The translations under genes and the position numbers were made by a program. DNA of 64,000 nucleotides from an uncultured Acidobacteriota bacterium (GTDB taxonomy: Bacteria; Acidobacteriota; Terriglobia; UBA7540). Positions 2,652-53,438 of this stretch are shown piece by piece; position 1 is the first letter of the stretch; each line of letters starts with the position of its first letter. Location of the stretch: contig CAWDSK010000005.1 in assembly GCA_963804995.1 (NCBI GenBank), positions 960,001-1,024,000 on the forward strand, read 5' to 3'. The notes beneath the pieces are model-generated. The model saw nothing but the letters and a program-made list of their open reading frames with translations. It was not told where the DNA came from and searched no databases.

Positions 2652-4070
2652 CTAAACTTCTTCTGGAACGACATACGGCGCGCGATAGGTGCCTCGCAGC
2701 ATTTTATTAGCTTCCTCGTCGCCGATGACCTGTTCAGTTTCCGGATCAAACTTCAGCGTCCGTCCGAGGCGATACGAGGTATTAGCCAGATGGATTAGAG
2801 CGCAGGAGATATAGCCTTCCTCGATCGGAGCATTCTGTTCTTCCGGCTTCCGGCTGCGCACGCAATTGATAAAGTTCTGCCAATTATTTCCTTCCCGCGA
2901 GCTGCTGGGCCCGCGCTCCTGATCCTCACCGAGCCAGGTGCGATAGGACGGGAATTCCTCGTTGGACATGGCCATATAGCCCTTCGATCCGTAGAAGATA
3001 TTCCCGACGGAGCCGTTGACCCGGTAGCGTCGCGAGCGGGAAGGATTTCTGGGCGGAGGCCCGAGGAATCCCGGAATGTCGATTCCGAATCCCAGCGACC
3101 CGATGCCCGCCTCCTGATTGGTAATCCAGTGGCGCACTTCAAATTCCAGAATCTTGGGCTTGCCCCCGGGCTGATTGAATTCGAAGGCGGCGTTGAGAGT
3201 ATTGGGAACTTCCTGGTCGTCATCGAACATGAAGTGTCCGCCCATGGCCGAAATCTTGTTGGGGAATTTCACGCCCAGCCCCCAACGGGCCACATCGATC
3301 TGGTGGGCGCCCTGGTTGCCGATATCGCCGTTGCCGGTATCCCAGAACCAATGCCAATTGTAGTGGAACCGGTTACGCGTGAACTCGTGGAGGGGAGAGG
3401 GGCCGGTCCAGAGATCGTAGTTCACGCCCGCCGGAACGGGTTCAACCGGGGCGTGCCCGATGGTATCGCGATCGTTGAAGCAGAGGCCACGCGCCAGATA
3501 GACGTCGCCGATCAGCCCCTCGCGCAGTTTTTGGATGCCCTCGATCACGGCGCCGGCGGAGCGGTTATTGGTTCCATGCTGCACGATGCGGTTGTATTTC
3601 TTGGTAGCCCGAACCAGTTGCCGCCCTTCCCACAAATAATGGCAGCAGGGCTTTTCGATGTAGCAATCCTTGCCGGCCTGGCAGGCCCAGATGCCCATCA
3701 GGCTGTGCCAATGATTGGGTGTGCCGAGGGAAATGGCGTCGATCGAGGAGTCTTCGAGGAGTTTGCGGATGTCGACGTAGGTTTTGGGCGTTGGCAGGGC
3801 CATGAGGTCCATGTCCGCCAGGCGCCCGCGCATAATGTTATCATCCACATCGCACAAGGCCGCGACTTCCACATTCGGCATGCGCGAGTACTGCTCCACG
3901 GCCGTAAAACCCTGTCCACGCACCCCGACTACCCCGACGCGTACGCGGTCGTTCGCGCCAAAGACCCGTTGGGGTTCGGTAATAAAGCTGATTCCCGCGA
4001 AGGCCGCGGCGCCGGCGGCAGCGATTCCCTTCGTGATCTGGTCCGTCCCCTGCTTTTTTTCTCCTGACAT
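2652..4070 (-). CDS. Gfo/Idh/MocA family oxidoreductase
   Basis: GANDRVRVGVVGVRGQG Rossmann start, TPNHWH, YIEKP, GDIGNQGAHQID. Confidence 0.92.
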   Translation of the reverse strand: MSGEKKQGTDQITKGIAAAGAAAFAGISFITEPQRVFGANDRVRVGVVGVRGQGFTAVEQYSRMPNVEVAALCDVDDNIMRGRLADMDLMALPTPKTYVDIRKLLEDSSIDAISLGTPNHWHSLMGIWACQAGKDCYIEKPCCHYLWEGRQLVRATKKYNRIVQHGTNNRSAGAVIEGIQKLREGLIGDVYLARGLCFNDRDTIGHAPVEPVPAGVNYDLWTGPSPLHEFTRNRFHYNWHWFWDTGNGDIGNQGAHQIDVARWGLGVKFPNKISAMGGHFMFDDDQEVPNTLNAAFEFNQPGGKPKILEFEVRHWITNQEAGIGSLGFGIDIPGFLGPPPRNPSRSRRYRVNGSVGNIFYGSKGYMAMSNEEFPSYRTWLGEDQERGPSSSREGNNWQNFINCVRSRKPEEQNAPIEEGYISCALIHLANTSYRLGRTLKFDPETEQVIGDEEANKMLRGTYRAPYVVPEEV

Positions 4071-4214
4071 AATGCCTACCCTTCGTGATGGATGATATCG
4101 AACCGCCTTCTACACCTCGGCGTAAATGAGGAATACAAATTATGAACAAAGAAAGGGGATGTCAAGGGGATTAAATCCCTGGTAGTGATTCAATTTGAGG
4201 TGCCACGGGCGTCC

Positions 4215-4342
4215 GAAGGTGTAAAAAAATACCATTTTCACCGCTGAGACGCTGAGACGCAGAGAAATGACCCTTTGTTTTCAAACCTCTGCGCCTCCGC
4301 GTCTCCGCAGTAAAAGGTTTGATGGGATTTTTTCACAGCTTC
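4215..4342. mobile_element. 128-bp MITE (family M1) inserted in a REP hairpin loop
   Basis: Termini GAAGGTGTAAAAAAAT / ATTTTTTCACAGCTTC; TCC duplicated on both sides; near-identical copy at 52921-53048. Confidence 0.8.
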
Positions 4343-4450
4343 TCCCGCCCGTGTCCAGTCACGGCCAAGACCCCGATGGATCGGGGCAGGTCGGTTGGGG
4401 GATTGGGCCATCGGTCCATGGGTTCATCAGCACAAGGTGAAGATGCATAG

Positions 4451-4519
4451 CCCTCTCCGAGGGGAGAGGGTGGCGCGCTGCCGGCGCTTTTACCAGCCGG
4501 GGCGCGCCGGGTGAGGGGG
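4451..4519. repeat. REP-like palindrome family CCCTCTCC..GGAGAGGG...GGGTGAGGGG
   Basis: Related copies at about 478-547, 31920-31989, 41695-41762, 48070-48141 and 62719-62791. Confidence 0.75.
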
Positions 4520-4547
4520 CAAGCGGTTAGTTCCGGGGTACTCAATT

Positions 4548-4800
4548 TGCCTCATCCTTGGCGTCGATTCCACCGATAACCGAAGTGGGGCAGTGTGGCA
4601 CGGCGGGGGCAGGTGTCGGTTTGGGGATCGGAGCGTCGGCTCATCGATCCCTCGATTCGTCGGCTGATCCGCTCATCGAGTCATGGCGTGATCTCGCGAT
4701 CTGGCGATTGCGTGATTGTGAACCCACTGCCGATTTTTGGGCTCATGTCCCCGTGCCAACCTACCGATTACCGATACGGGGCAGTGTGTCACGGCGGGGT
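4548..4800. repeat. Two copies of a ~37-bp motif ACCGATAACCGAT.CGGG..AGTGTGTCACGGCGGGG separated by short tandem repeats
   Basis: Copies at 4573 and 4763; same motif at 63242, 63390 and 63724. Confidence 0.7.
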
Positions 4801-5011
4801 TAGGGGGACGAGGGGTTCGGGCTAGGGATTCGGAGTTCGGGATTCGGGGCGGGGCGAGAGGAGCTAGGAGGAGTCAGGAGCTAGGAGTTAGGAGTCAGTA
4901 GCCCAAACCCTAACCCTAACCCTAACCCTAACCCCTAGGCCCCCTGTCCCATCTGTCAGCTGTCGGCCGTTAGCTATCACTTGCCATCTGTCTGCTGTGA
5001 GCTGTCGGCTT

Positions 5012-5192
5012 GTAGCGCGGGTGTCCCCACCCGCGCTTTACGTGTCTCGTTGCCTCGGAGACGCGGGTGAGGACACCCGCGCTACAAGCGATCTGATAGC
5101 TGAGAGCTGAAAGCTGAAAGCTTTTCCTCAGCACCATGCCTCATCCCGATTGACCACATGCAGTTGCCGCTGGGGTATCGGGCAGAGAAGCC
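5012..5192. repeat. Repeat unit B1: GTAG-REPIN followed by a RAYT-like 3' tail
   Basis: GTAGCGCGGGTGTCCCCACCCGCG...CGCGGGTGAGGACACCCGCGCTAC (5012-5085), then a tail shared with B2 and B3. Confidence 0.85.
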
Positions 5193-5200
5193 CCTCGCCC

Positions 5201-5229
5201 TTGACTCGCCGTGCATACAAATGCATGCT
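5201..5229 (+). promoter_or_regulatory. Putative sigma70 promoter with overlapping operator for brnTA
   Basis: TTGACT-17 bp-CATGCT with an imperfect palindrome GCATACAAATGCATGC across it. Confidence 0.45.
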
Positions 5230-5235
5230 CAGTAA

Positions 5236-5301
5236 ATGGAGATCGTCTGGGACCGCGCCAAAGCGAGGCAAAACGTGGCGAAGCACGGCGTGCGGTTTTA
5301 A
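5236..5301 (+). pseudogene. brnT: Truncated BrnT-family toxin (21 codons)
   Basis: MEIVWDRAKARQNVAKHGVRF* matches the BrnT N-terminal WD..K...N..KHG..F motif; lies directly upstream of brnA. Confidence 0.8.
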
Positions 5302-5303
5302 GC

Positions 5304-5558
5304 ATGAAAACCTACGAATTCAGTAAAGGAAAACGCGGACCGGTGCTGCCCGTGCCACCCGGCAAGGAACGCATCACCATTCGCCTGGACACCGACATTC
5401 TGGAATATTTCCGGGACGCGGTGGAGAGCGCCGGGGGCGGTAATTATCAAACCTTGATCAACAACGCGCTGCGCGCCTATATCGAGGGTGGACAGAAGCC
5501 CTCAATCGAGGAAACGCTCCGGCGGGTGATCCGCGAGGAACTGCGGACCGCGCCCTGA
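5304..5558 (+). CDS. brnA: BrnA-family antitoxin
   Basis: KERITIRLDTDILEYFR...GGNYQTLINNALR ribbon-helix-helix signature. Confidence 0.88.
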   Translation: MKTYEFSKGKRGPVLPVPPGKERITIRLDTDILEYFRDAVESAGGGNYQTLINNALRAYIEGGQKPSIEETLRRVIREELRTAP

Positions 5559-5680
5559 GGGGGCGGGATTGGGGAGCTGGGGGCCGGGATACGGGGCTCG
5601 GGATACGGGATTTGGCGATCCTGAATCTAGAATCTCAAATCTGGAATCGAAACTCGGAACTGGCTGTCGGCTGTGAGCTT

Positions 5681-5875
5681 GTAGCGCGGGTGTCCCCACC
5701 CGCGTCGAATCCGGGTGTTCCCACCCGCGCTTTACGTGTCTCGTCACCTCGAAGACGCGGGTGAGGACACCCGCGCTACAACCAATCTGATCGCTGAAAG
5801 CTTCTCTCCAGCACCATGCCTCAACCAGATTGACCACATGCGTTTGCCACGGGGTGCAGGGCATGAGAAAAGCCC
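5681..5875. repeat. Repeat unit B2: REPIN followed by a RAYT-like tail
   Basis: Direct repeat of B1 with an extra partial REP at 5711-5729. Confidence 0.85.
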
Positions 5876-5976
5876 CTGGTCACGACGCCACTGAACGTGG
5901 CTTTTAGCTACCCGCGTATTCCCTGTTTGCGTGCTTAGCCAGTCTGCGATATCCTCTCGCCCCGAGACACGCTCCT

Positions 5977-6237
5977 ATGCCTGAGACCGACAAAATTCTC
6001 ATCCAGGTTTTGCGCGGACAGTCCGACGCCAACCTGCGCTTTGCGGACCTCAGAGGATTACTTCAGCGGCTGGGCTTCGTTGAGCGAATTCGCGGCAGTC
6101 ATCACATCTTCTGGAAAGAGGGCGTCGAAGAAATTCTAAACCTCCAGCCCAAGGGGGGCAAAGCCAAACCCTATCAGGTGAAGCAGGTCCGGCATGTTAT
6201 ACTCAAGTACAAGTTGGGAGGCGGTTTAGATGCCTAA
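5977..6237 (+). CDS. hicA: HicA-family toxin
   Basis: LGFVERIRGSHHIF...NLQP...AKPYQVKQV. Confidence 0.9.
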   Translation: MPETDKILIQVLRGQSDANLRFADLRGLLQRLGFVERIRGSHHIFWKEGVEEILNLQPKGGKAKPYQVKQVRHVILKYKLGGGLDA

Positions 6238-6439
6238 GTACGAAGTCATCATCTATTGGAGCGAGGAGGACAAGGCCTTCATCGCCGAAGTGCCGGAACT
6301 TCCCGGCTGTGCGGCCGATGGCAAGACCTATCGGGAAGCCCTCGCCAACGTAGAAGTGGTCATCCAGGAATGGATCGAAACCGCCCAGGAACTCGGCCGC
6401 TCCGTCCCCGCCCCCAAGGGCCGATTGGTGTTTGCCTAA
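6230..6439 (+). CDS. hicB: HicB-family antitoxin (short form)
   Basis: YWSEED.AFIAEVPELPGC.ADG.TY.EAL; overlaps the hicA stop. Confidence 0.9.
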   Translation: MPKYEVIIYWSEEDKAFIAEVPELPGCAADGKTYREALANVEVVIQEWIETAQELGRSVPAPKGRLVFA

Positions 6440-6620
6440 CTGGCCCGGTTGACTTTCAAATTGCTTCTTTCCGTTCTTGATAACTTAAAACTGACAACTA
6501 AAGACCTTTTTCTGCTGTCGGCTGGTAGCTTGTAGCGCGGGTGTCCCTACCCGCCCTTTACGTGTTTCGTCACCTCGAAGACGCGGGTGAGGACACCCGC
6601 GCCTGGAGTTTCTACATTTA

Positions 6621-8000
6621 TTATGCATCAGCGGCGTGGGTGAGGGCGCGGTCGGTGAGTTGGAAGCCCAGAGATTGGGGACATTCCGGGTGGTCGACCA
6701 TTTCTTGGCGCAGCAGGGTGACGAGGTCGAGGCAGGAAGGGCGGTGGGCCTTGCGTCGCCACCGGGGCAGAGCCTGATAGGCCGTGCCACGCTCGGTGCC
6801 GAAGGCTTGGAGAGAAGCCAGGAGCAGCGCGCTGTAGGCGGCCACGACCAGGGCAGGTTGCTTGGGCACGGCGTTAACGTTCCATAACTGGGCTTGTCCG
6901 ACACCCAGCGTCTCCTTCTCGTCGCGGTGGTTGACTTCGATCTGCCAGCGGTCGAAGTAGATTTGCAGCAACTGAGGGGCAGAGTGCCGCAGGTCGGTGG
7001 TCAGCAGGTAGGCCGGTTGACGGTAGTAGAGTCTGGAGCTCTTCCGTTTGCGATAGGGGGTAGGAGCCACGACGAAGAGCCGCAGGGGGATCTGGCCGGC
7101 GCCCCGACGCCAGTAGACTTGCGACACCTCTTTATAACGGAGGCGGCGGCGCTTGCCTCCGTAGAAGAGCTTGGTTTGCTGCCAGAGGTGGGACTCGTCC
7201 TGCCGGACCTGTTCGGGGGTAAAGGTGGAGAGGGCGTAAAAGCGGCGAGAAGGCTGGGGAGCGCGAAAGCCGAGGCGCGCATCCTTGCGGGCGCGGGCGA
7301 TCAACTCGGTGCGATCGCGGGGGGCGCGCAGACAGGTGCGGTTGCAGAAGCTGCCATCCAGAGCCAGCACCAGCAGCTTGGCCCCACCCCCGGCCGCATC
7401 CAGCGCCTGGCGCAAGGGGGCCACGCTCTGCACAAAACGCTGCGAGAGGTTGTGGAGCTTGCGCATCCTTTTATATTCCTGCCAGGCTTCCTCTTTCGCC
7501 TTGCGGGAGGGCTTTTTCAGCGGCGCCGCCTCTTCAAAGCGCACGGGCAGAGCGCGGCAGCTGGCGGGGGCGTACCGATGCAGGGGCAGCAGCAGGGAAG
7601 CTTGCAGAAAGCGCACGCCGCGCAGGAGGTTGACATGAAAGGGGGGCGAGAGGGGATCGCGGTGATAACGCGCCTGGGGAATGGCGCGGCCGGTCTTGCG
7701 CAGGCGGGTGTCGTCGACGGCCACGCCCACCAGGCGGCCGGGACAATAGGGCAAGGCGCGGCGCCAGACGCCGGCAAACAACGTCTGCGGTTCCCAGTGA
7801 CAACGCGAGTGGAGAAAGTATTCGCTCGACCAACTGCGCTGCTGGCGGCCCTGGGTCCAGAGGATACGCGAAAGACAGCGTCGACCCACGCAGACCAAGG
7901 CGCCCAGGGCCTGGCGCACGGCGCGCTGCAGGGTGCGCTGCTGGGGAAAAGTGGGGGCCCAGTCCGCCACGATCTCCGACCAGGCGGCGAACAGAGTCAT
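6621..8000 (-). CDS. DDE transposase, IS4 superfamily (IS701-like)
   Basis: VAVDDT, LALDGSF and Y..RWQIE......K (YREK) motifs; stop codon abuts the IR. Confidence 0.88.
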   Translation of the reverse strand: MTLFAAWSEIVADWAPTFPQQRTLQRAVRQALGALVCVGRRCLSRILWTQGRQQRSWSSEYFLHSRCHWEPQTLFAGVWRRALPYCPGRLVGVAVDDTRLRKTGRAIPQARYHRDPLSPPFHVNLLRGVRFLQASLLLPLHRYAPASCRALPVRFEEAAPLKKPSRKAKEEAWQEYKRMRKLHNLSQRFVQSVAPLRQALDAAGGGAKLLVLALDGSFCNRTCLRAPRDRTELIARARKDARLGFRAPQPSRRFYALSTFTPEQVRQDESHLWQQTKLFYGGKRRRLRYKEVSQVYWRRGAGQIPLRLFVVAPTPYRKRKSSRLYYRQPAYLLTTDLRHSAPQLLQIYFDRWQIEVNHRDEKETLGVGQAQLWNVNAVPKQPALVVAAYSALLLASLQAFGTERGTAYQALPRWRRKAHRPSCLDLVTLLRQEMVDHPECPQSLGFQLTDRALTHAADA

Positions 8001-8332
8001 CGGGCCTCCGGACGTAAGCCGAAAGTGTTCTTCCCGGTACGCAGGAAGCGATCGCCGCGGGCGACTTTTTTGGTCAGCGAAGAGACCAGGCTCTCGCGAT
8101 CGACGGTGACGTAGAAGGCGGCGCGGAGGCGCGCCAGGAGTTCGGAAATGTGCAAGGGGGTACGGGCCTTCTTGAGTATGTCGTACGCCATGTCCACTTG
8201 GGACAGACCTGTGCGGCGCGGCCTCGGGGCGGGGGCTGGGGAACCGCCGCGGAGACGGCGAACCGCCCGCAACTGGGCATCCAGTGAGGCCTCGAATATC
8301 GAAAGAATGGAATCCTTGAGATCGTCAGGCAA
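7997..8332 (-). CDS. Small winged-helix protein (HARE-HTH-like), IS accessory gene
   Basis: AYDILKKARTPLHISELL...FLRTGKNTFGL; GGAGG upstream of the TTG start; ATGA overlap with the transposase start; lies inside the IRs. Confidence 0.75.
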   Translation of the reverse strand: MPDDLKDSILSIFEASLDAQLRAVRRLRGGSPAPAPRPRRTGLSQVDMAYDILKKARTPLHISELLARLRAAFYVTVDRESLVSSLTKKVARGDRFLRTGKNTFGLRPEAR

Positions 8333-8605
8333 GTTAACCTCCGGAGCCAGGACTCAGGAGGAAGGTAACGGAAATCAGGTCGGTCTGTCAATAGAAATAT
8401 TACTTTGCCAGACCTAAATGTAGAAACTCCAGACGCGGGTGAGGACACCCGCGCTACAACCAATCTGATCGCTGAAAGCTTCTCTCCAGCACCATGCCTC
8501 ATCCAGATTGACCACCTGCGTTTGCCACGGGGGCATTGGCATAAGAAAAGCCTATAGTCACAACTATGCGGACGGTCGACCGCTAATCAATCTTTGCCGC
8601 GGAAT

Positions 8606-9574
8606 TCACCAGTGCTTGGGGTCGTCCTTGAACTCGCTGTCCTCTAATTTCCTCAGTTCCGAAAGGCTTCCCGCCGCTTGGGACTTGACCATCTTCCACA
8701 CCTCGGCAAAAGCCTGTCGTGATAGATTAAGTTTCATGCCATCGGACCAATTTACCCACGTCTTCGCACTGATACGGCCGCTCCGTCTCAGAAATACTTG
8801 CTCATTAGATAGGTCCAAATAGTGGTAGATTCCATCCATACACTTAGAGAATTCGTCTGGAGTCAACGTCTGGCCCAGGAGCGCCTTGACGGGGATAGTC
8901 TTAAGGATTTCTCTGTATTGGTGCGATAGCCCATCCTCGAAAGCGGTTATGCTCTGTCTCTTGCTCAGCCAAATTTGCCAGCCAACGAAAATAACGCCGA
9001 GCGCTGTTGCGCATGATCCAATTGCCTGCCAGTTCATGATAGTAATCCTCAACTTGTAATCGTGGCCGTGCGGATACGTTGCGCTCAAGGCCAGACAGGT
9101 CAAGCAAAGCCACGCGATAAAGAAGAGCGAGGGCACCAACCGCATCAACCAACGGTAACTCGGCCAATCCACCCGGTGGATCTTGTAAAGCTCCGCAGCG
9201 TTGTTGTCATATTTGCTCGCAAAGTTCCATTTCGGTAAATCGGATTTTGTGTTCGATGTGGAATCCGAGGTAAGCGATTCCTTTTCAATTTGTTGGATCG
9301 CCGCCCACCAATAGTCAATATAGGATTGTACCTTCTGGTCGTTTCTAATCCAGACTCCAGTCAGGGCAAGTCCAAATGCGCAGGCAATAATGCCAAGAAA
9401 GTTGTTGCAGCCATCTAGGATTACCTTGCCAACACCAAGTAGTAGGGCCGTCTCAAACGCAGCGAAATAGTTTGTTCGGTGCCAGCCAGAATCTACCTGG
9501 AATCGCCAAGTTTCAAACAACAGGCGATATATTCCCAACGTCTCGGTTCGGTTCCGTTCTTGATCGGGCGTCAT
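8606..9574 (-). CDS. Two-domain membrane protein (RipA-like multi-TM N-terminus plus TM-anchored helical C-terminal domain)
   Basis: Several hydrophobic helices; second module begins MNWQAIGSCATALGVIFVGWQI; ATG at 9574 chosen. Confidence 0.6.
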   Translation of the reverse strand: MTPDQERNRTETLGIYRLLFETWRFQVDSGWHRTNYFAAFETALLLGVGKVILDGCNNFLGIIACAFGLALTGVWIRNDQKVQSYIDYWWAAIQQIEKESLTSDSTSNTKSDLPKWNFASKYDNNAAELYKIHRVDWPSYRWLMRLVPSLFFIAWLCLTCLALSATYPHGHDYKLRITIMNWQAIGSCATALGVIFVGWQIWLSKRQSITAFEDGLSHQYREILKTIPVKALLGQTLTPDEFSKCMDGIYHYLDLSNEQVFLRRSGRISAKTWVNWSDGMKLNLSRQAFAEVWKMVKSQAAGSLSELRKLEDSEFKDDPKHW

Positions 9575-9590
9575 GCGGTATTCCTGCTTG

Positions 9591-10043
9591 CTAGTTATCC
9601 AACAACGCTCCACTATCAAATTCGCTTGAAGCCTTGCGGCGGGCTGCAACGAGCCGCGCCCTAAGATCCTCAGGAATCACTGCACAAACAAACTCAATTT
9701 CTTTTGGTACGCGGCCTCCTGCTACCTCCTTTTGGCACTGGTCGAACATGTCAGGCTCCGTAAGAACGATGACCCGGCGCTTTGCCTCGACCAAGGTCAA
9801 AAAGAGCATGTCGGATCGTAGCTTCAGGATCTTGCCGACGGCGTGCTTTCCTCCCGAAGTCTTGGCGCCACTGGTTGAGACAGTGGCGACGATGGAGCGG
9901 TCTTCGCTTACTGCGTCAAAATCAAAGACCCCACCAGATCGGAGCGGCAGGCGCTCCCGCGAGAACTTGGTTCCAAAGTGCGAAAGCATCCAGTTACGCC
10001 TTACCCAGTCTTCCACTTCAACTTGAACGCGGGTATCTGCCAT
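9591..10043 (-). CDS. Hypothetical protein, possible restriction-endonuclease fold
   Basis: GAGG upstream of the start; FDFDAVS...IVATVST resembles a degenerate PD-(D/E)xK core. Confidence 0.6.
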   Translation of the reverse strand: MADTRVQVEVEDWVRRNWMLSHFGTKFSRERLPLRSGGVFDFDAVSEDRSIVATVSTSGAKTSGGKHAVGKILKLRSDMLFLTLVEAKRRVIVLTEPDMFDQCQKEVAGGRVPKEIEFVCAVIPEDLRARLVAARRKASSEFDSGALLDN

Positions 10044-10225
10044 TTGTTGCCCCCTCTGGCTACCTCCTCCTCAGGATCGCAAGAACAATGCCGACCACGA
10101 TCAGTCAAATCAGAAATGAGAAATGCACACGGCCAGATTACGACTGACCGCGGCCGATTGCTGGAAGAGAGTCCCCTCGGGAGATCGCAGACGCTAAGAT
10201 GCAACCGTCTCGCCCGCCCGTTTGC

Positions 10226-12650
10226 TCATGGCACCCTGCATTCAAGGGATTTGCGAAAAGCCGGGTGAATACAATAGCAGAACTGTTGAAGCCCGCTCTT
10301 CATCTTCTGCACGTTATGTTCGAACTGGTACGAATACCGTTCCCGATCATCTGGGTAGGTATAAATACCTAGAAAACCGAACCATAGGAGGAGGTCTTTT
10401 ACCTTGTCCACATCCTCCATCCTGATACCTGCCTCCGCAAGCGCTATTGAAACATCTGAGGGGGTAAGCTGAGCCAATGACCCTATGAACGCATACGTCG
10501 CATTTCCAAATTCCGGCTTTACATCCTTCAACTCAAAGCTAAGATCAACCAGTGCGTCCTCGGAGTACGATCTTTCCGCCGTACAAATGTCGTCCTCAAG
10601 CACTAGTTCATGGCCCCTATTCACTGCCACGTTGATGCAGTCTCTCATAAACCGCAAAACCTCGCGGGGCCGCATGAGGGTCCTTTCAAGAATGTACGAG
10701 AAGGATTCTTCGCCTGATACATGGCTTACAAAGAAGAGTCTCCATAGCTCGTCAAAACTCTCGTCAAGTCCCGTGCTTAGAACGATCCTTCTTCTTAGCA
10801 TTTCCTTGAGCGTTTCCGGGTCGTTCCAATCTAGCAGGGCGGCATTGTCCTTTCCTCGGTCGGCCGGGTCGACTATTAGGTGGTCATATATGTCATTTCT
10901 CAGGAAAACCACGGCATGCAAGTCAACGGACCGGCTTTCGAATTGCCGTTGCAGTTTTCTAGTTGCCTCAAGCAAACTCTTAATTAGGGAAATGTCTTCA
11001 TTCTTCACGTCGAATATCGGCCATCCTTTATCCAAATTGTCGAATAGAAGCCAAATATCCTCCTTCCTGCTCGCGCGCACGAATTCTCCTATGGCATCAT
11101 TGAGTGGTCGGATGTCCTTTCGGTAGATGAGTTGGGTCACCTCAGCTGCCGCACCCACCTTTCCGATCGAATCTTTTCGTTTCAGGATCTCGTCAACGAG
11201 TGCCAAGAGGCGCTCAGAAAAATCACCTTGCTCTGCGCCCGAGACAGAGTAGGTTTCGTAAGCCGCCCGGGTCGCCTCGTAAGCTCCCCGGAGGCGTTCG
11301 TCACGATATGATTGCGGCTCCTCGAAATGAACAATCTTGTGAGCAATTTCCATTAACAACAGGTAATTCCAGAATGCCGTAAGGACATGCATTTGTAAAC
11401 CGGGCGAAAGGTCCTTTAGGACGGTCTCGCGCAATTTAGTAAACTGATGACCCTCCGGTTTCAAATCTAGAACCAAACGCGACCGCTCCTGTGAGTATGC
11501 AGCACGAATCCCGTAGAAGATGGCTGTCTTTCCGGCTCCCTTCCGACCCACGACCAGCCTGGCGTGCCCGCGCTTGGCCTCGTTGTATTGCCCAGTAGGG
11601 ACGAAATAGGAGCGGAGCGCAAGGATTCTCGTTTTCCGCCGCCAAGTCTCCCAGGTCAACCTTCTCGAGGGGGGTCAAGGGAAGAGACGTGGGAATGAAA
11701 CGGCTGTCCTGTAGCATCCCTACAACCGACTTAATGAATGGAATTATTAGGTCGGGTATTGCCTTCGGAGTCTTGTAGCAACGGATTACGTCCCGATAGT
11801 CGATCGGCTGCGTAACTTGGGTTTCCTGCAACATCAGGACATGCTTCCCTGCGGCCATCGCTAGCCCCGCTACAAAGGAGCACCGTGAATTGTGGGGAAT
11901 GTAGCCGGCGCGATTTGGAGCCATCAAGTGGACCACGACACCAAGCGACGACTGAACCTGTTTGAAGGCCTCGTGCAACGAAAGACGAGCCGACTCCCTT
12001 GGATCGAATGCACGGAATCGGAGCCCGGACTTCTTCAACGCGGACATTAAACGTACCATTCCCTCGCTTTGAATCGGACTCTTCATGAGATAAAGGGGTT
12101 GCTCTTTGTTTATGGGAGGCCCCTGGGGCAAGGCGAGACTGGGTGCTGGCTTGGTGAGAAGCTCGTTTGCTATTTCCAACGAGTTTTGGAAGTCGAAGTA
12201 TCCCAGAGTATCGATTAGCCCCAGTTCTGCGAAGGTCCTGGCGTCTTGTATGTATGATGTGTCACGGATTGGAAGGACAGGGATGCCGAGACCGATTGCG
12301 TAACCTATTTCGAACAGAAGATTGAAATTCAATGTTGTCACATCGGCTACGATGAACCTCGTGAAACGCATGCCCTTGCAAATTTGGCAAAAGATTATTT
12401 GGCCAGAAACTCCAAGGTCCTTCCATCCCAGCCAGTTCTTATTGCCTGCAACAGCTTTCAGGCGCCTTAAGGCTTCTTCAATGGTGCTCGCGATAATCTG
12501 GGGTTCGGCCGGATATAGGAATAGCGCGTCTGAGCGGACTGTGTTCTCAAAGGATTGGTCGCAAGGACCGGCGGCATACTCGCAAAAAAGTGGTGGCTGC
12601 GCGATTAACGGCAACTGCATGTTCGGCAGGCTCGAGGACATCCGACACAC
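10226..12650 (-). CDS. Tandem nucleoside-deoxyribosyltransferase/TIR-like domains fused to an Sll1717-like P-loop ATPase (frameshift at about 11626)
   Basis: IVADVTTLNFNLLFEIGYAIG motif; LGDLAAENE joins ILALRSYF if one A is removed; Walker A GRKGAGKT, Walker B WLLFDNLD, RPRE. Confidence 0.8.
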
Positions 12651-13142
12651 CGCTTCCCTGCTCTTAAGGCGACCGCATCCATTGTGCTCTTTGTGATGGG
12701 TGCGGCTTATTGTGCTTCAAAGACGCACTCGTCGCGTTTAGCTCGGGCGGCCGCGTCGTGGTCCCTGTATACACCTACTGTGGGAGCATCGCAAGTGGGA
12801 AGGGTAGGTTACAGTGGACGGGTTACCGGGACCGCGGAGAGTAGGTGAATTCTGAAGTGCGAATCATGGAAAACAGATTTCGTCGCCTGTAGCGACTATG
12901 GGCCGGACCTATCTTGAGGTCCGCCGCTTTTCGCGCCCGCCAACGTTTGTAAGCTCAGTTCAATGTTGCCTCCGCGCGGCATCTGAGAACAGTGGCTAGT
13001 GGTTAGTGGCTAGTGGCTAGTGCTACGAACAGTGACGAAAGGCAAGTGACAAGTGACGAGCAAGGTCCCAAGTCCGAAGCACGGGATCGAAGATCGAAAC
13101 TCGGAAATCGAGAATCCCAAATCACCAATCGAAAATCGTCAA

Positions 13143-13358
13143 TTAGAGGTCTTCCGGCTTAAGGCCGGTGTGCTTGGCGATGCGGGCAAGCATTCTGGGT
13201 CCAATTTCCTCCGAGGCATGGAACGCCCAGGTGAATTCACCTTTGTGGGGGTGGCTAAGTTGAATGTGCGAGGAACCCTTTTGTGCCTTGACGGACCAAC
13301 CGCTTCGGAGAAGGGCACTGAGAACCTTGCGGGCTTTTGTACTCGGCCAGTGACTCAA
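13143..13358 (-). CDS. hicA: HicA-family toxin
   Basis: LLRSGWSVKAQKGSSHIQL.H......TWAFH...EIGP.ML..I.K. Confidence 0.88.
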   Translation of the reverse strand: MSHWPSTKARKVLSALLRSGWSVKAQKGSSHIQLSHPHKGEFTWAFHASEEIGPRMLARIAKHTGLKPEDL

Positions 13359-13576
13359 GGGCAGCAGGCAATGGAGATTTCGAGGGGTTTGTCCTTCTTC
13401 TCTTTCTCGATTTCGTCGGCAAGCACGCGCAGGGCAAGTGCCTTAACCTTGGCCACCGCTTCCCGTTTGTTCTTGCCATAGGCGAGGACTCCAGGAAGTG
13501 AGGTGATTTCGGCAATCCAACGCCCGTCCTCTTCGCGGTCCAGCTCAATCTGAAACTTCACGCGGCTCTCTCCCAT
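13355..13576 (-). CDS. hicB: HicB-family antitoxin
   Basis: ELDREEDGRWIAEI..LPGV.AYG....EA; start at ATG 13576 or GTG 13561. Confidence 0.88.
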   Translation of the reverse strand: MGESRVKFQIELDREEDGRWIAEITSLPGVLAYGKNKREAVAKVKALALRVLADEIEKEKKDKPLEISIACCP

Positions 13577-13684
13577 CCGGTTTTCGCTAGTGCCATCGTA
13601 AAACACGGCCGGCGGCAGGTCAATGTCGAAATATCACCGCTTCTCTACGTGTGGCGCCGGTTGCTGTAGCGGCGTTCGCCGCCT

Positions 13685-13993
13685 CGGTTCACTATTGCCC
13701 CCGCACGGCATCCCGCGCAGTTTGTGCCACAGCCGACCTGCCCCGATGCATTGGGGTCTTGGCCGTGACCCTTCACGGGCGGGAGAAGCTGTGAAAAAAT
13801 AGATAATCTCGCGCAGAGCCGCTGAGGCGCAGAGATTTTAAGCAAATAACTGATTTGTTTTCTTTGGGGCCTCCGCGCCTCTGCGCGAGATGCTTTTGCT
13901 CGTTCAGGGATTTTTTCACGGCTTCGGACGCCCGCGGCACTTTTCTCGGACAATTCGTTGCCCGCATTGCATTTTAGGGCTACCGGTAGCCCA
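13685..13993. repeat. Composite repeat: core A, REP, MITE (13785-13925, GGA duplication) and GGGCTACCGGTAGCCC palindrome
   Basis: About 310-bp direct repeat of 22433-22750. Confidence 0.85.
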
Positions 13994-14550
13994 AATCGTA
14001 CGCAGGGGTATTGACTTTGCCATAACAATAGTGGTTATCATAAGGGGTGGAAGCGATGGCGTCCTCATGAAGTAGTGCCGAGCCTGCTATGAGTGGGACG
14101 AAGGATCGGCAGATCGGGCACCCGCGAAAAATGCTCACCATAAGGCGGCGCTGCAATGGCCTCGGCTCTCGCGATGTGTCGCATAATAAAGGTGTTAGCG
14201 GTTAAGACTCGAAACTTGTCGAAACCCTATCTCATTCATTTAACAAGGGTTAGCATGAACTGCGGGAGCCGATGCGAAAAAACGCGGGGGGAAAAAATGA
14301 AGGATAGTGTCGCGATATTGTTGAAAACAGATTCCAGCCTGCGCCAATTGTGGCGGCTCACCCGTGGTCCGCCGGGGGGCGCTGATCTGTAGAGATGTTA
14401 AAAATGAAGGAACCTCCGGGGATGTGTATGAAAACACAGGAGAGGGGACAATTTGTCAGGCTATTTTTCGAGCTTTTTACAGAAAATTCCCGAGTTTTGC
14501 GACTATGGAGGGCAATCGAGCGGGATTGTTGGCCTGAAATACGCGAATTG

Positions 14551-15172
14551 GGGTATCCACTTGACTCAGCCACCCCCTACATCTTGTGGTTTGGCCGGGG
14601 CGGTTCGGATGATGGAGGCGTAGGTGGCTGGTTCTACGGCGACAGCCTGTTGCACAAGCCGAAAGAACAATTTGCCCCGGCTGCGCGATCTCCGGCGGTT
14701 GAACCGGAAGGTGAACTCGTCCAAATAATAATCTAGGTGTTCGATACGGACGGCCCCTTGATGGGTACCCAGCAGCCATCGCTTGAGCAGCGAGATAACC
14801 CGATGGACCCGTGGCAACAGATCGGACGGAGACTTCTCGGGATTTCGACCCGAGGTGGTCCAATGGCGGTAACCCCTCCACCTCCACCGTTCCGGCCAAC
14901 CGGTCCCGGCCCGGTCGTACCATCGCCCGGCGCAGTTTATGCAGCCAAGCCCAAGCGGTCTGGTAACTTCCCAACCCCAACACCCGCTGCAGCCCCAAGG
15001 CACTCACGCCGTTTTTCTGAGTGGTCACCCACCACATCGCCCGGAACCAAACTGTCAACGGGGTGTGCGTGTCCTGGAAGATCGTTCCTGCTGTCACCGA
15101 TGCCTGGCGACCGCACCCCGCACACTGCCACAGACCCGAACGCATCGACCAAGACGTGGCCGCCCCGCAGCC
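14551..15172 (-). pseudogene. IS1595-family transposase relic, 5'-truncated and internally deleted
   Basis: Zn ribbon WQCAGCGRQASVTAGTIF and YQTAWAWLHKLRRAM; joined out of frame to LKRWLLGTHQG...YLDEFTFRFNRR; DE/D core absent; one IS end near 14551. Confidence 0.85.
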
Positions 15173-15257
15173 CAGACTCAGTGCCTCTGTCGCCGTCCGA
15201 GCTGACCCTTGTCTTCTCTTCAACCTTTGCAATACATGCGTTCTAGGCAGGGACACG

Positions 15258-16961
15258 TCAGGGGGGGAGCCCGATGCGGTCAAGCAGGTTACGAAAGCGA
15301 GCCGAGTGTGCGAGGGGTTCAAACCTTGGGTCGCAGTTGAGGAAAACCAGAAGCGGGTCGTGCTGCTCGTAGGCCTTTTCGATGCACCCCAAAGTGCATT
15401 CGTTGTTTCCCAGGTGGACCGCCGCCTGCGCCAGGAAGATGTAACGCACGTATTGTTGTTTGCTCAGGGTGGCCAACTCTTCCAGCAGGCGCTCCGCGGA
15501 CGTTCGTCGCCCCGCCAGGGCATAGACAGAACAGAGCGTTGAAGTAAAGATGGTCTGGCTCCTGGCGAGGGCTCTGGCCTTCTCGCAATGGGTAAGGGCG
15601 TGAGCGAAATCGCCCTTTTGTGCCAAGCACACCCCCAGCATCATGTGAATCAGGGCCGTGGAGGGATCATGGCTCAGTAGCTTTCGGCAAACCTCGATGG
15701 CCAGATCGTAACTCCGGGCGAGGATTCCCAGAACGGCCAGCGCCGAGCCGATTACCGGCGACAGGGGGTCGAGCCGCAACGCCTGTCTCAGCTCCTCGGC
15801 GGCCTCGTCAGGCCTAAAGACAACCAAGTGACACGCGGCCAGGAGCATCCACGCGCTTCCATCGCTGGAATTAAGCTCGATGGCGCGCCGGCAACTGGCC
15901 TCGGCTTCCGGCCAGTTCCAAGCGCCGAAGAGGTGCCATGCCGCCAGCGCGGCATGGGCGCGGCAGAGCTGCGGATCCAAATCCAAGGCCTTCAGGGCAA
16001 GTTCCCTGGTTGCCCACAACGCGGCGGCGGGTGGATAGTCGTACCAAAAGGCCAGACGAAACCAGGCCGTGGCGAGTTCGGCGTACGCGGGAGCACAATT
16101 CGAGTCGATGGCAACCGCCCGGCTGAAAACATCAAGGCTCTTCTTGATATCCGCCTCCGACCACTGGAAAAGCAGGGTCCCTGAAAGGTAGGCATTATGG
16201 GCCGCCGGGATCCAGGTGGTCTGCGGATGCGGGTTCTGCGTAATAGGCAAGCCGAGCTTGGCTGACAGGGCGCCAGCAAGTTCCCGTGCCAACCCTTGCT
16301 GGAGTGAAAATAAAGCCGGGAGCTGGATTTCAAAACTATCTGCCCAGACTTGGGCCTGGTCGCGCGCCGCAATGAGTCGTGCGGTCAGGCGGACCTGCCG
16401 CCCGTGCCAGCGCAATCCTCCCTCCATGACGTAATCCACGCCTAATTCCTTCCCGATTTGCTCGATGCTTTTCGCCAATTGCTTGTAGTACACGACCGAG
16501 GTGAAACCGATGACCCGGAGATGTCCCGGACTCAGTTGGCCGAATTCGGAAATGACTTCATCGGTGAGGGCGTCCGCAAACGTTCCCTTCGCAGGATTGC
16601 TCGTAAAGTTTCTGAAGGGAAGGACGGCAATCATGATTGGCCGCCCTGAGGAGGGTTCGTGTTTTGTAATCCCAGCGAGTGCTGGCAAAAGCCCTGAGGT
16701 GAGGGGCCCCGGGCCATGACCCGTACTTTCCGCCCTCCTGCGACTCTTTAGCCAAGCATCAATCTTATCGGTGAAGGCATAGACTGTTTCTTTCTTATGA
16801 TGCAGGTGACGGCGGACCGGCAGACCCTCCGCCCGCTCCCAGCGGCGGACCGTCCGCGGGCTGCGCTTCAGATAGGCCGCAATTTCCTTCCAGGAATCGA
16901 GTCGCAGTCCGGGGGCGGGAGTGACAATGCTCGGCTCCGGGGACGTTCCTGCGTTTGACAC
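15258..16961 (-). CDS. HTH / TolB-N-like / TPR regulatory protein
   Basis: LDSWKEIAAYL...RTVRRWE, IAVLPFRN, multiple TPRs, DPRFEPL C-terminus. Confidence 0.85.
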   Translation of the reverse strand: MSNAGTSPEPSIVTPAPGLRLDSWKEIAAYLKRSPRTVRRWERAEGLPVRRHLHHKKETVYAFTDKIDAWLKSRRRAESTGHGPGPLTSGLLPALAGITKHEPSSGRPIMIAVLPFRNFTSNPAKGTFADALTDEVISEFGQLSPGHLRVIGFTSVVYYKQLAKSIEQIGKELGVDYVMEGGLRWHGRQVRLTARLIAARDQAQVWADSFEIQLPALFSLQQGLARELAGALSAKLGLPITQNPHPQTTWIPAAHNAYLSGTLLFQWSEADIKKSLDVFSRAVAIDSNCAPAYAELATAWFRLAFWYDYPPAAALWATRELALKALDLDPQLCRAHAALAAWHLFGAWNWPEAEASCRRAIELNSSDGSAWMLLAACHLVVFRPDEAAEELRQALRLDPLSPVIGSALAVLGILARSYDLAIEVCRKLLSHDPSTALIHMMLGVCLAQKGDFAHALTHCEKARALARSQTIFTSTLCSVYALAGRRTSAERLLEELATLSKQQYVRYIFLAQAAVHLGNNECTLGCIEKAYEQHDPLLVFLNCDPRFEPLAHSARFRNLLDRIGLPP

Positions 16962-52589: not shown

Positions 52590-52694
52590 GCCTATCTCTC
52601 CTGGGCGACCGCGATGTTGCGGTCGCCCGGGAGATTTGTTTCTCCCACCGGATCCACTTCATCCTCCATTTCCTCACGCGTTTTGGACCAGCAG

Positions 52695-53377
52695 GTAGCC
52701 ACAGACAGTGCCTTTCTGTCCGTGGGCTTTTCCCTGATGCACAATCCCCGGTCAATTGTGGCTGGCACGACGGCGCTCACCCGGGGGTTCTTGAAGGCAT
52801 AAATACGTAGGGGTAATCTGCGGGCGTGTCAAACGTCCGTCGCCTACGCCACACCGACCGAATCTTCTTTCTTAGTGTGAACCTTCGTCCTCGCGGGTGG
52901 CGCATACGTCCCGGCGCTCTGAAGGTGTGAAAAAATATCATTTTCACCGCTGAGTCGCTGAGACGCAGAGAAATGACCCTTTGTTTTCAAACCTCAGCGC
53001 CTCCACGTCTCCGCGGTGAAAGGTTTGATAGGATTTTTTCACAGCTTCTCTTTGTCGGGATGTATGCGGCGGAAGAGGAATATCTGCGGGCAGGGTCAGA
53101 GACGTGAATCGCAGAGCTGAGCTCGCTCTGCGCCAGCCTGCCAACTGGGATATGAGGCGTGAGAAAAGCCCACGGACAGAAAGGCACTGTCCGTGGCTAC
53201 CAGCTTTGTGGTTATGTTTTGATGCCCGACCATTGGCACGCCCTGAAGCGGCATGCCCAATTCAGATTGATTACGTGCGATTGCCGCTGGGATATCAGGC
53301 ATGAGGAAAGCACACTGCCAACTGGGATATGAGGCGTGAGAAAAGCCCACGGACAGAAAGGCACTGTCCGTGGCTAC
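52695..53377. repeat. REP cluster GTAGCCACGGACAGTGCCTTTCTGTCCGTGGG (three copies), with MITE M1 at 52921-53048
   Basis: Copies at 52695-52726 (+), 53169-53200 (-) and 53346-53377 (-); MITE flanked by TCT duplication. Confidence 0.85.
53204..53304 (+). pseudogene. Internally deleted REP-associated tyrosine transposase (RAYT) remnant
   Basis: LCGYVLMPDHWHAL (HUH motif) joined out of frame to AACPIQIDYVRLPLGYQA*; lies between GTAG-REPs. Confidence 0.75.
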
Positions 53378-53438
53378 CAGCTCGCATTTCTCATCAGGCC
53401 GAGCCGTTTTCCACGAGCGGTCGGAAGGCGGGGCTTCA

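Follow-up and report, generated by a model that had tools for sequence, protein, structure and literature searches.

Toxin-antitoxin and candidate defence genes alternate with remnants of a RAYT gene in an Acidobacteriota genome: possible cassette junctions without an integron integrase

How do toxin-antitoxin (TA) and defence genes come to stand in a row between direct copies of one repeat when no integron integrase is found? The question is raised by a locus in a 64,000-bp stretch of DNA from an uncultured Acidobacteriota bacterium (GenBank assembly GCA_963804995.1, contig CAWDSK010000005.1, positions 960,001 to 1,024,000), which we call the window. It corresponds to C5:960001-1024000 of the genome here named G000 (7.55 Mb, 58% G+C). 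A preliminary description had noted three repeat units, each composed of an inverted pair of repetitive extragenic palindromes (REP) with GTAG feet, called a REPIN, and a tail resembling the 3' end of a REP-associated tyrosine transposase (RAYT) gene. It proposed that they may be junction scars left by an HUH-driven system while capturing and stacking cassettes. According to our analysis, the region would be a decayed member of cassette arrays found throughout the genus, in which TA and defence modules alternate with shrunken RAYT copies, the RAYT having made the first joint and host recombination having done the stacking. We give this reading about an even chance. The RAYT stubs probably serve as swap sites of an integron-like gene store that lacks the integron integrase. 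The evidence added here consists of orthologous sites that are filled or empty, blocks shared across species and genome-wide counts.

The three units were found on the plus strand where they had been placed before, at 5012, 5681 and 6532, the last continued at 8433. Each contains a short-repeat arm, a REPIN of family A, a second short-repeat arm and a tail of ~60 bp, and the right halves of the three are 87-95% identical to each other. Unit 1 is preceded by a low-complexity arm of the GCTGTCGGC type (4940..5011, plus strand), which also stands before other composite copies in G000, and consists of the family-A REPIN (5012..5085), which is not the REP of the tail's RAYT, and the 3'-end tail of the RAYT family designated RAYT-B (5135..5192), whose own REP hairpin has been deleted. 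Unit 2 (5559..5915, plus strand) contains G-rich short repeats, REPIN-A (5681-5779), the tail (5815-5875) and a decayed RAYT-B hairpin, REP-B, reaching to 5915 (folding z -0.1). Unit 3 is split by an insertion sequence (IS). Its left part (6532..6602, plus strand) holds REPIN-A as far as the IS and ends in the left copy of a 22-bp duplication (6581-6602), and its right part (8433..8564, plus strand) holds the duplicated REP arm (8433-8454), within the continuation of the REPIN (8433-8457), followed by the tail (8493-8553) and a decayed REP-B. The family-A REPIN, with the GTAG-footed sequence GTAGCGCGGG, folds as a single long hairpin (z -8.9). Elsewhere in G000, C6:1377467 carries another complete composite copy, the fourth, with 96% identity to unit 1, and other composite copies stand before a brnT/CopG pair (one), type I restriction genes (two) and a type ISP fragment (one). 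No Rfam match was found within positions 3000-16000 of the window (no attC model was run).

The cargo between the units is made of TA genes. The first cassette (5201..5558, plus strand) contains a promoter with a -35 box at 5201, a brnT pseudogene (5236-5301) and brnA (5304-5558). The pseudogene has lost ~205 bp compared with an intact relative, and its name rests on the comparison with relatives. The second cassette (5916..6439, plus strand) contains a promoter region, hicA (5977-6237) and hicB (6230-6439). Pfam confirmed the products of the three complete genes as BrnA, HicA and HicB.

The tails of the window match the end of an intact RAYT gene of a relative, G026 (G-numbers other than G000 denote genus relatives, and L-numbers fetched stretches), at 80-81% over 57-59 nt, with alignment scores of 58-67 against 26-28 for the best of 500 shuffles. 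The proposed origin of the tail is borne out by the match to intact RAYT genes. The RAYT remnant near 53 kb of the window matches at 85% over 68 nt. This remnant (52690..53382, plus strand) is a broken full element, a decayed RAYT-B REPtron with a left REP-B, the gene start, inserted repeats, the tail (53244-53314) and a right REP-B. The tails are not confined to the window, since a DNA hidden Markov model (HMM) built from 15 genome copies found 60 of them in G000, where a stricter regular expression found only 4.

Intact RAYT-B genes are present in 5 of 29 genus genomes (G026, G007, G020, G002 and G028), each in another genomic context, with the protein end CPIQ(I/V)DYV(R/Q/H)LP.GYRA. The protein has 169 residues and Pfam domain Y1_Tnp only, with no C-terminal helix-turn-helix (HTH) extension, and the motifs DHWH and YMHxNP of a class-2 Y1 HUH transposase are invariant in the intact relatives. 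The three genes scanned matched NF047646 (REP-associated tyrosine transposase) with 90-100 bits at a cut-off of 80. The intact genes are flanked by inverted GTAG-footed hairpins, REP-B, with the sequence GTAGCCACGG(T/A)CAG, which stand on both sides in four of the five genes shown, the fifth being cut at its 5' end. G000 holds fragments of RAYT-B only, together with 86 REP-B loci. The usual short form, hereafter the mini, has ~190 bp and consists of a left REP-B, the last 110 bp of the RAYT-B gene and a right REP-B. REP-B comes after the tail, following GAAAAGCC; in the window it has been lost or has decayed. RAYT-B is thus the source of the junction repeat. Compared with the minis, only the tail remains in the window, and REPIN-A is an addition from another family. 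REPIN-A as part of the site of the tail's RAYT was rejected because the intact RAYT-B genes carry REP-B, not REP-A, and the earlier idea that REPIN and tail form one recognition site gave way to two repeat families. A RAYT cognate to REP-A was not found; none of 14 Y1_Tnp matches in G000 had REP-A within the 120-130 flanking bases shown.

In L104:5194-5733 and at 653.6 kb of contig C1 of G000, a left REP-B hairpin was observed within the RAYT-B gene, immediately ahead of the WRWSS codons and after an AAGCGG-like stretch that resembles the outer end of the element. In G020 the frame remains open despite this hairpin. The internal hairpin may point to the way in which the mini forms or re-enters the gene. 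Separately, the direct repeats at the C6:1673045 block, C6:1606990 and C2:350035 appeared by eye to include the 3' end of some other RAYT family or of genes that once belonged to TA pairs, and the capture of gene ends may thus not be limited to RAYT-B.

Are these repeats associated with TA genes beyond the window? Genes in G000 were called with a simple hexamer model, and nine TA families were located, giving 136 merged loci after the exclusion of one HigB match inside a 712-aa frame. Flanks were compared for blocks of up to 1.3 kb with free flanks, 118 of them TA blocks and 2036 others, a class that still contains TA families outside the nine. A TA locus was found within 500 bp of 12 of the 60 tails, compared with 3.6-4.8% for random intergenic spots. 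REP-B occurred in the flanks of 30/118 TA blocks vs 76/2036 others (odds ratio 8.8), and the abundant families G, K and N were not enriched (odds ratios 0.1, 0.5 and 0.8). The enrichment of tails and REP-B beside TA genes, which the preliminary description had set as a test of its model, is therefore present in the genome as a whole. Direct repeats flanked 25/118 TA blocks vs 63/2036 others (P 8e-13), inverted repeats only 3/118 vs 26/2036, and neighbouring tails formed nine direct and three inverted pairs. The repeats directly flanking TA blocks belonged to many families, and for 23 of 28 pairs another place in the genome matched at least as well. An origin as local target duplications was rejected for most of them, 5 of the 28 pairs being local.

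Comparison between species showed that the cargo changes at fixed sites. The relatives compared are different species, with genome completeness of 92% for G000, 96% for G005 and 73% for G013. Because loci were chosen for the tails or TA genes in them, and related genomes do not count as independent, the comparisons are to be taken as cases, not rates. In the closest relative, G013, whose GFO oxidoreductase orthologue is 91% identical over the aligned part, five full minis stand directly upstream of the GFO gene, and their cargo is of DUF433, ParE, BrnT and AbrB/PIN type or unknown. Apart from one dispersed repeat, this array has nothing in common with the window island. It emerged by tail mapping; by synteny, only the GFO gene itself aligned in 10 relatives. 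No tail was found in the other nine stretches with GFO orthologues, two of which stop early at contig ends. Between rimM and trmD, G005 carries a 6.8-kb array of six minis with PIN, PIN, ParE and other cargo, and the gap is at most 351 bp in all 20 other genomes fetched (of 28). In most of these 20 (L137-L156) the spacer was seen to be a hairpin of short imperfect tandem repeats with a species-specific unit, that is, fast-turning repeats inside a ribosomal protein operon. The Fer4-iscS site was compared in ten genomes that have the gene. It is occupied by a 10-kb array in G026 and by an array of different cargo in G022, is empty in G000, and contains inserted genes without tails in G015 and G007.

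Blocks of cargo plus mini pass between species. A ParE-type pair with its mini (783 bp) is 99.4% identical between G013 and G005, and its cargo alone 99.7%, compared with 88.6% for trmD. An AbrB/PIN pair with a RAYT remnant (1337 bp) is 95.5% identical between G013 and contig C1 of G000, and its cargo alone 99.0%, compared with 82.4% for trmD. Both blocks have REP-B sequence at both ends, and at one end of the ParE block just ~20 bp of the hairpin are common to the two hosts. Cargo variation, as the earlier proposal had predicted, was found at orthologous sites, and the shared blocks examined end in REP-B hairpins. Since near-identical units of gene plus stub occur in different species at different sites, the stubs are likely to be swap sites.

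Among the 27 brnA homologue loci scored, the tail stands upstream in 5 and downstream in 6, always in the same orientation, and nearly all tail-bearing loci are among those with 88% identity or more. Of the 9 closest loci displayed, among them the window, 7 have the tail immediately in front of the -35 box, and the deletions of REP-B differ between them. Direct repeats were found at 6 of 26 hicAB homologue loci and belonged to other families. In G020 an open RAYT-B frame is followed by 140-aa cargo and then by a 96.8% copy of the last 190 bp of the RAYT, an arrangement which, judged from its sequence, is the pattern of a single crossover. In G026 a cyclase-effector pair of a cyclic-oligonucleotide-based antiphage signalling system (CBASS) stands after a tail. 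The large arrays L121 (G000:C1:653-660 kb), L112 (G005) and L039 (G013) were observed to have two opposed halves, in which two mini subfamilies face each other, one with a 6-bp deletion. Before the first mini of the G013 array (L039:2950-3010) stands a stretch that, judged by eye, looks like a short fragment of a protein-kinase gene, possibly flank from an earlier site. In L086 and L173 (G002:C35), brnTA stands between ~150-bp direct repeats of a family other than RAYT-B.

The sequence of events that would account for these arrangements starts with the enzyme. According to the available parts of the reports (PMC8266576, PMC3479197), RAYTs cleave single-stranded DNA at CT sites found on either flank of the GTAG hairpin and carry out strand transfer in vitro. 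RAYT-B, while present, would nick single-stranded DNA near its GTAG hairpin and join REP ends to nearby DNA, producing a unit of mini plus cargo. An incoming unit, as a circle or a linear piece, would cross over with a resident mini to give mini-cargo-mini direct repeats, and repetition of this step would give rows. Units would then be moved and stacked by host homologous recombination between copies of 110-190 bp, and the same repeats would delete cargo while addictive TA modules stay. In G000 the junction would later have gained the family-A REPIN and lost its own REP hairpin, and the window array would therefore now turn over by homology only. If RAYT-B made the first REP-cargo joint, this would account for the association of TA genes with REP-B instead of with the commoner families G, K and N. 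Recombination by the host between minis would explain the bias to direct over inverted repeats across many families, the G020 pattern and the arrays in genomes without an intact gene. Of the original junction-scar model, the tail origin, the TA enrichment and the variable cargo stood, and the single REPIN-tail site and the stacking by an HUH enzyme found no support.

Several observations weigh against the model of RAYT joining and host stacking. None of the nine TA families lies within 500 bp of 48 of the 60 tails, the fourth composite copy (C6:1377467) is followed by a Crp-like gene without a TA pair, and the HMM found a tail at only 1 of the 26 hicAB homologue loci. Nor is RAYT-B alone in being enriched: at TA blocks family F is equally strong (odds ratio 13), and families L, A, I and C are also raised (4.9, 3.7, 3.3 and 2.5). 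No intact RAYT-B was found in G000, G005 and G013 at the completeness given above, and these three have the clearest arrays. How RAYT and RecA would share the work is deduced from sequence alone, and the order of events is putative, the relatives being different species. Neither a circle nor an empty donor site nor a conspecific strain was found (this strain is in none of the sequencing runs examined).

The rival that survives best gives the enzyme the whole task. RAYT-B would cut out, as a single-stranded circle, the cargo lying between a pair of REP-B ends and rejoin it at another REP-B without homology, a reading that we regard as possible but doubtful. With the same reserve, RAYT-B may be seen as the single-strand HUH enzyme of an integron-like platform, taking up TA and anti-phage cassettes at its REP ends and stacking these in rows that follow copies of the 3' end of its own gene. 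The ends of the shared blocks, within or exactly at REP-B hairpins, agree with excision by the enzyme, as does the family-specific TA enrichment. In G026 and G020, moreover, defence-type genes or a cassette stand directly behind intact RAYT-B, and the stop codon of the cargo lies within 15 nt of the REP-B end in 4/19 stop-facing TA cases vs 5/73 others, which are small numbers. However, an enzyme that does the stacking, as first proposed, is not supported by the three array-rich genomes in which no intact RAYT-B was found. The window junctions have lost the REP-B hairpin, and TA genes are also found between direct repeats of unrelated families. The E. coli RAYT is monomeric, and the authors, in the part of the report available, find no obvious way for it to form a circular intermediate (PMC3479197).

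A passive hot spot, in which TA genes and small repeats accumulate independently in tolerant intergenic sites and the look of an array is a by-product, would suit the thousands of small repeats of many families in G000, the majority of tails without a TA neighbour and the clustering of TA loci in any case (48/136 in 21 clusters). But independent insertion predicts about equal numbers of direct and inverted pairs, and the 25 vs 3 found at TA blocks argue against it, as do the 9 vs 3 among neighbouring tails. In addition, cargo and mini travel together between species at 99% identity, and the closest brnTA homologues keep the tail orientation in unrelated contexts. We therefore consider this reading improbable. 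Slightly less probable still is a reading in which the short-repeat hairpin arms would be the active ends, mobilized by some other small nuclease, with tail and REPIN as passengers. Such arms begin every window unit, bracket hicAB homologues in other genera and occupy the empty rimM-trmD site. Against this reading, TA blocks show no enrichment of the GCTGTCGGCTG arm (4/118 vs 64/2036 others), and the arrays of G005, G013 and contig C1 of G000 use full minis, mostly without arms. The joint action of RAYT-B and host recombination remains our preferred explanation.

The third cargo of the window (8606..12650, minus strand; 49-54% G+C) contains an open reading frame (ORF) with an 8xMP domain, a 150-aa ORF without a family, an Sll1717-type ATPase and an ORF that overlaps it and gives a weak nucleoside-deoxyribosyltransferase-like match. 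PADLOC gave no match in this interval, and the genes are candidate defence genes only. The tail HMM found no closing unit behind them. The two overlapping minus-strand ORFs at 10226-12650 look like a single frameshifted gene, and 8606-9649 looks like two genes read as one. A second hicAB-type pair (13143..13606, minus strand) lies at the far end of the island amid short repeats, without a tail. The island is flanked by a DUF772/DDE transposase gene (677-2203) and a broken IS1595-type element (14477-15322).

The element that splits unit 3 (6603..8432, minus strand) is an IS701-like element of 1830 bp with CTGG...CCAG ends, a probable DDE_5 transposase gene (6621-8000) and a small winged-helix ORF (7997-8332). 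Its transposase matches PF13546 with 28.8 bits (cut-off 27), and the best NCBIfam model, IS701_3, scores 132 bits, below the cut-off of 170. The 22 bp duplicated at this insertion are a REP hairpin. The element is present in 7 copies, and in all 7 a whole hairpin of 18-23 bp is duplicated, unlike the 4-bp target duplication given as the rule for the IS701 family in the part of the source available (PMC2266710). A second IS701-like family (G000:C5:1268528, L132), with 41% amino acid identity to the window element and the same CTGG...CCAG ends, has an 18-27 bp hairpin duplicated in 8 of 10 copies. The two copies without duplication (C2:760070 and C1:279012) have one hairpin in common, on complementary sides, as after recombination between copies. 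Both families insert at hairpins of many different sequences and duplicate the whole hairpin. No description of a hairpin-duplicating IS701 element was found in the literature searched, which left out most subscription papers.

The role of RAYTs and REPs for their hosts is an open question, and little is known of the assembly of defence islands apart from integrons. In the genomes compared here, a single RAYT family and its REP occur together with natural cassettes (brnTA, ParDE-type, AbrB/PIN, CBASS and type I restriction genes), and both filled and empty sites are at hand, which makes it directly testable whether the enzyme joins REP ends to cargo and whether RecA is needed. If the HUH platform were true, RAYTs would gain a job useful to the host, the building of defence arrays. 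Even under the homology model, copies of a MITE (a miniature transposable element with inverted repeats) would act as exchange sites for addiction modules between species.

How does this arrangement compare with known systems? No paper describing TA arrays delimited by RAYT ends was found in a search that left out most subscription papers and supplements. By enzyme and ends the element is a REPtron: RAYT-B agrees with the REPtron or REPIN-RAYT systems, as far as the available parts of the reports describe them, in having a class-2 Y1 HUH enzyme between two inverted GTAG hairpins and many non-autonomous copies (PMC8266576, PMC3479197, PMC5581495, 10.1101/2021.07.10.451892, PMC6006769). Unlike in the REPtrons described, the non-autonomous copy retains the last 110 bp of the gene, and unlike in the available descriptions of REPtrons, the copies delimit exchangeable gene cargo. 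Model RAYTs are described, in the portion available, as fixed and vertically inherited (10.1101/2021.07.10.451892), whereas RAYT-B is patchy and apparently mobile, with intact genes in few genomes and unlike contexts.

The arrays resemble sedentary chromosomal integrons, as described in the accessible parts of two reports (10.1101/2024.07.02.601686, PMC13108822), in their rows of unrelated, TA- and defence-rich cassettes, their direct repeats and their variation between genomes at one site. The integrase is another matter. In agreement with the earlier statement that IntI is missing, no match to its model TIGR02249 with E <= 1e-30 was found in G000, G005 and G013, and none of 25 genus genomes had a match above the cut-off. 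The RAYT-B arrays further differ from integrons in their RAYT-end junctions, their number of cassettes (2-6) and their frequent division into two opposed halves. Their cargo points both ways instead of having one main orientation, with eight TA genes near tails in the same orientation and seven in the opposite one, and the third window cargo is also opposite.

Neighbouring DNA is taken along by a single-strand HUH enzyme in ISCR elements and by an IS end in IS26, and the resulting unit inserts at a copy already present, giving rows of repeat, cargo and repeat. Such rows, as in complex class 1 integrons and IS26 arrays, are also what the RAYT-B arrays look like. The RAYT-B enzyme, however, is of the IS200/REP type, not the IS91 type of ISCR, the repeat is a 190-bp mini without a gene, and unlike in the ISCR and IS26 arrays the sites are chromosomal and the cargo consists of TA and defence genes. 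The pdif modules use XerC/D and 28-bp sites. They are similar to the RAYT-B arrays in that accessory modules are shuffled between short repeated sites, as described for Acinetobacter in the part of the source available (PMC13141974), and different in that the junction of the RAYT-B arrays derives from a transposase gene (pdif sites were not searched for here). The TIRtrons or TIRYT (PMC3733652; subclass 2.1 of PMC6006769) are RAYT-like Y1 genes with terminal repeats that the available parts of these papers report from Acidobacteria. Compared with TIRYT and subclass 2.1 as described there, RAYT-B is a protein of 169 aa without the C-terminal HTH extension, and its gene is bordered by true GTAG hairpins.

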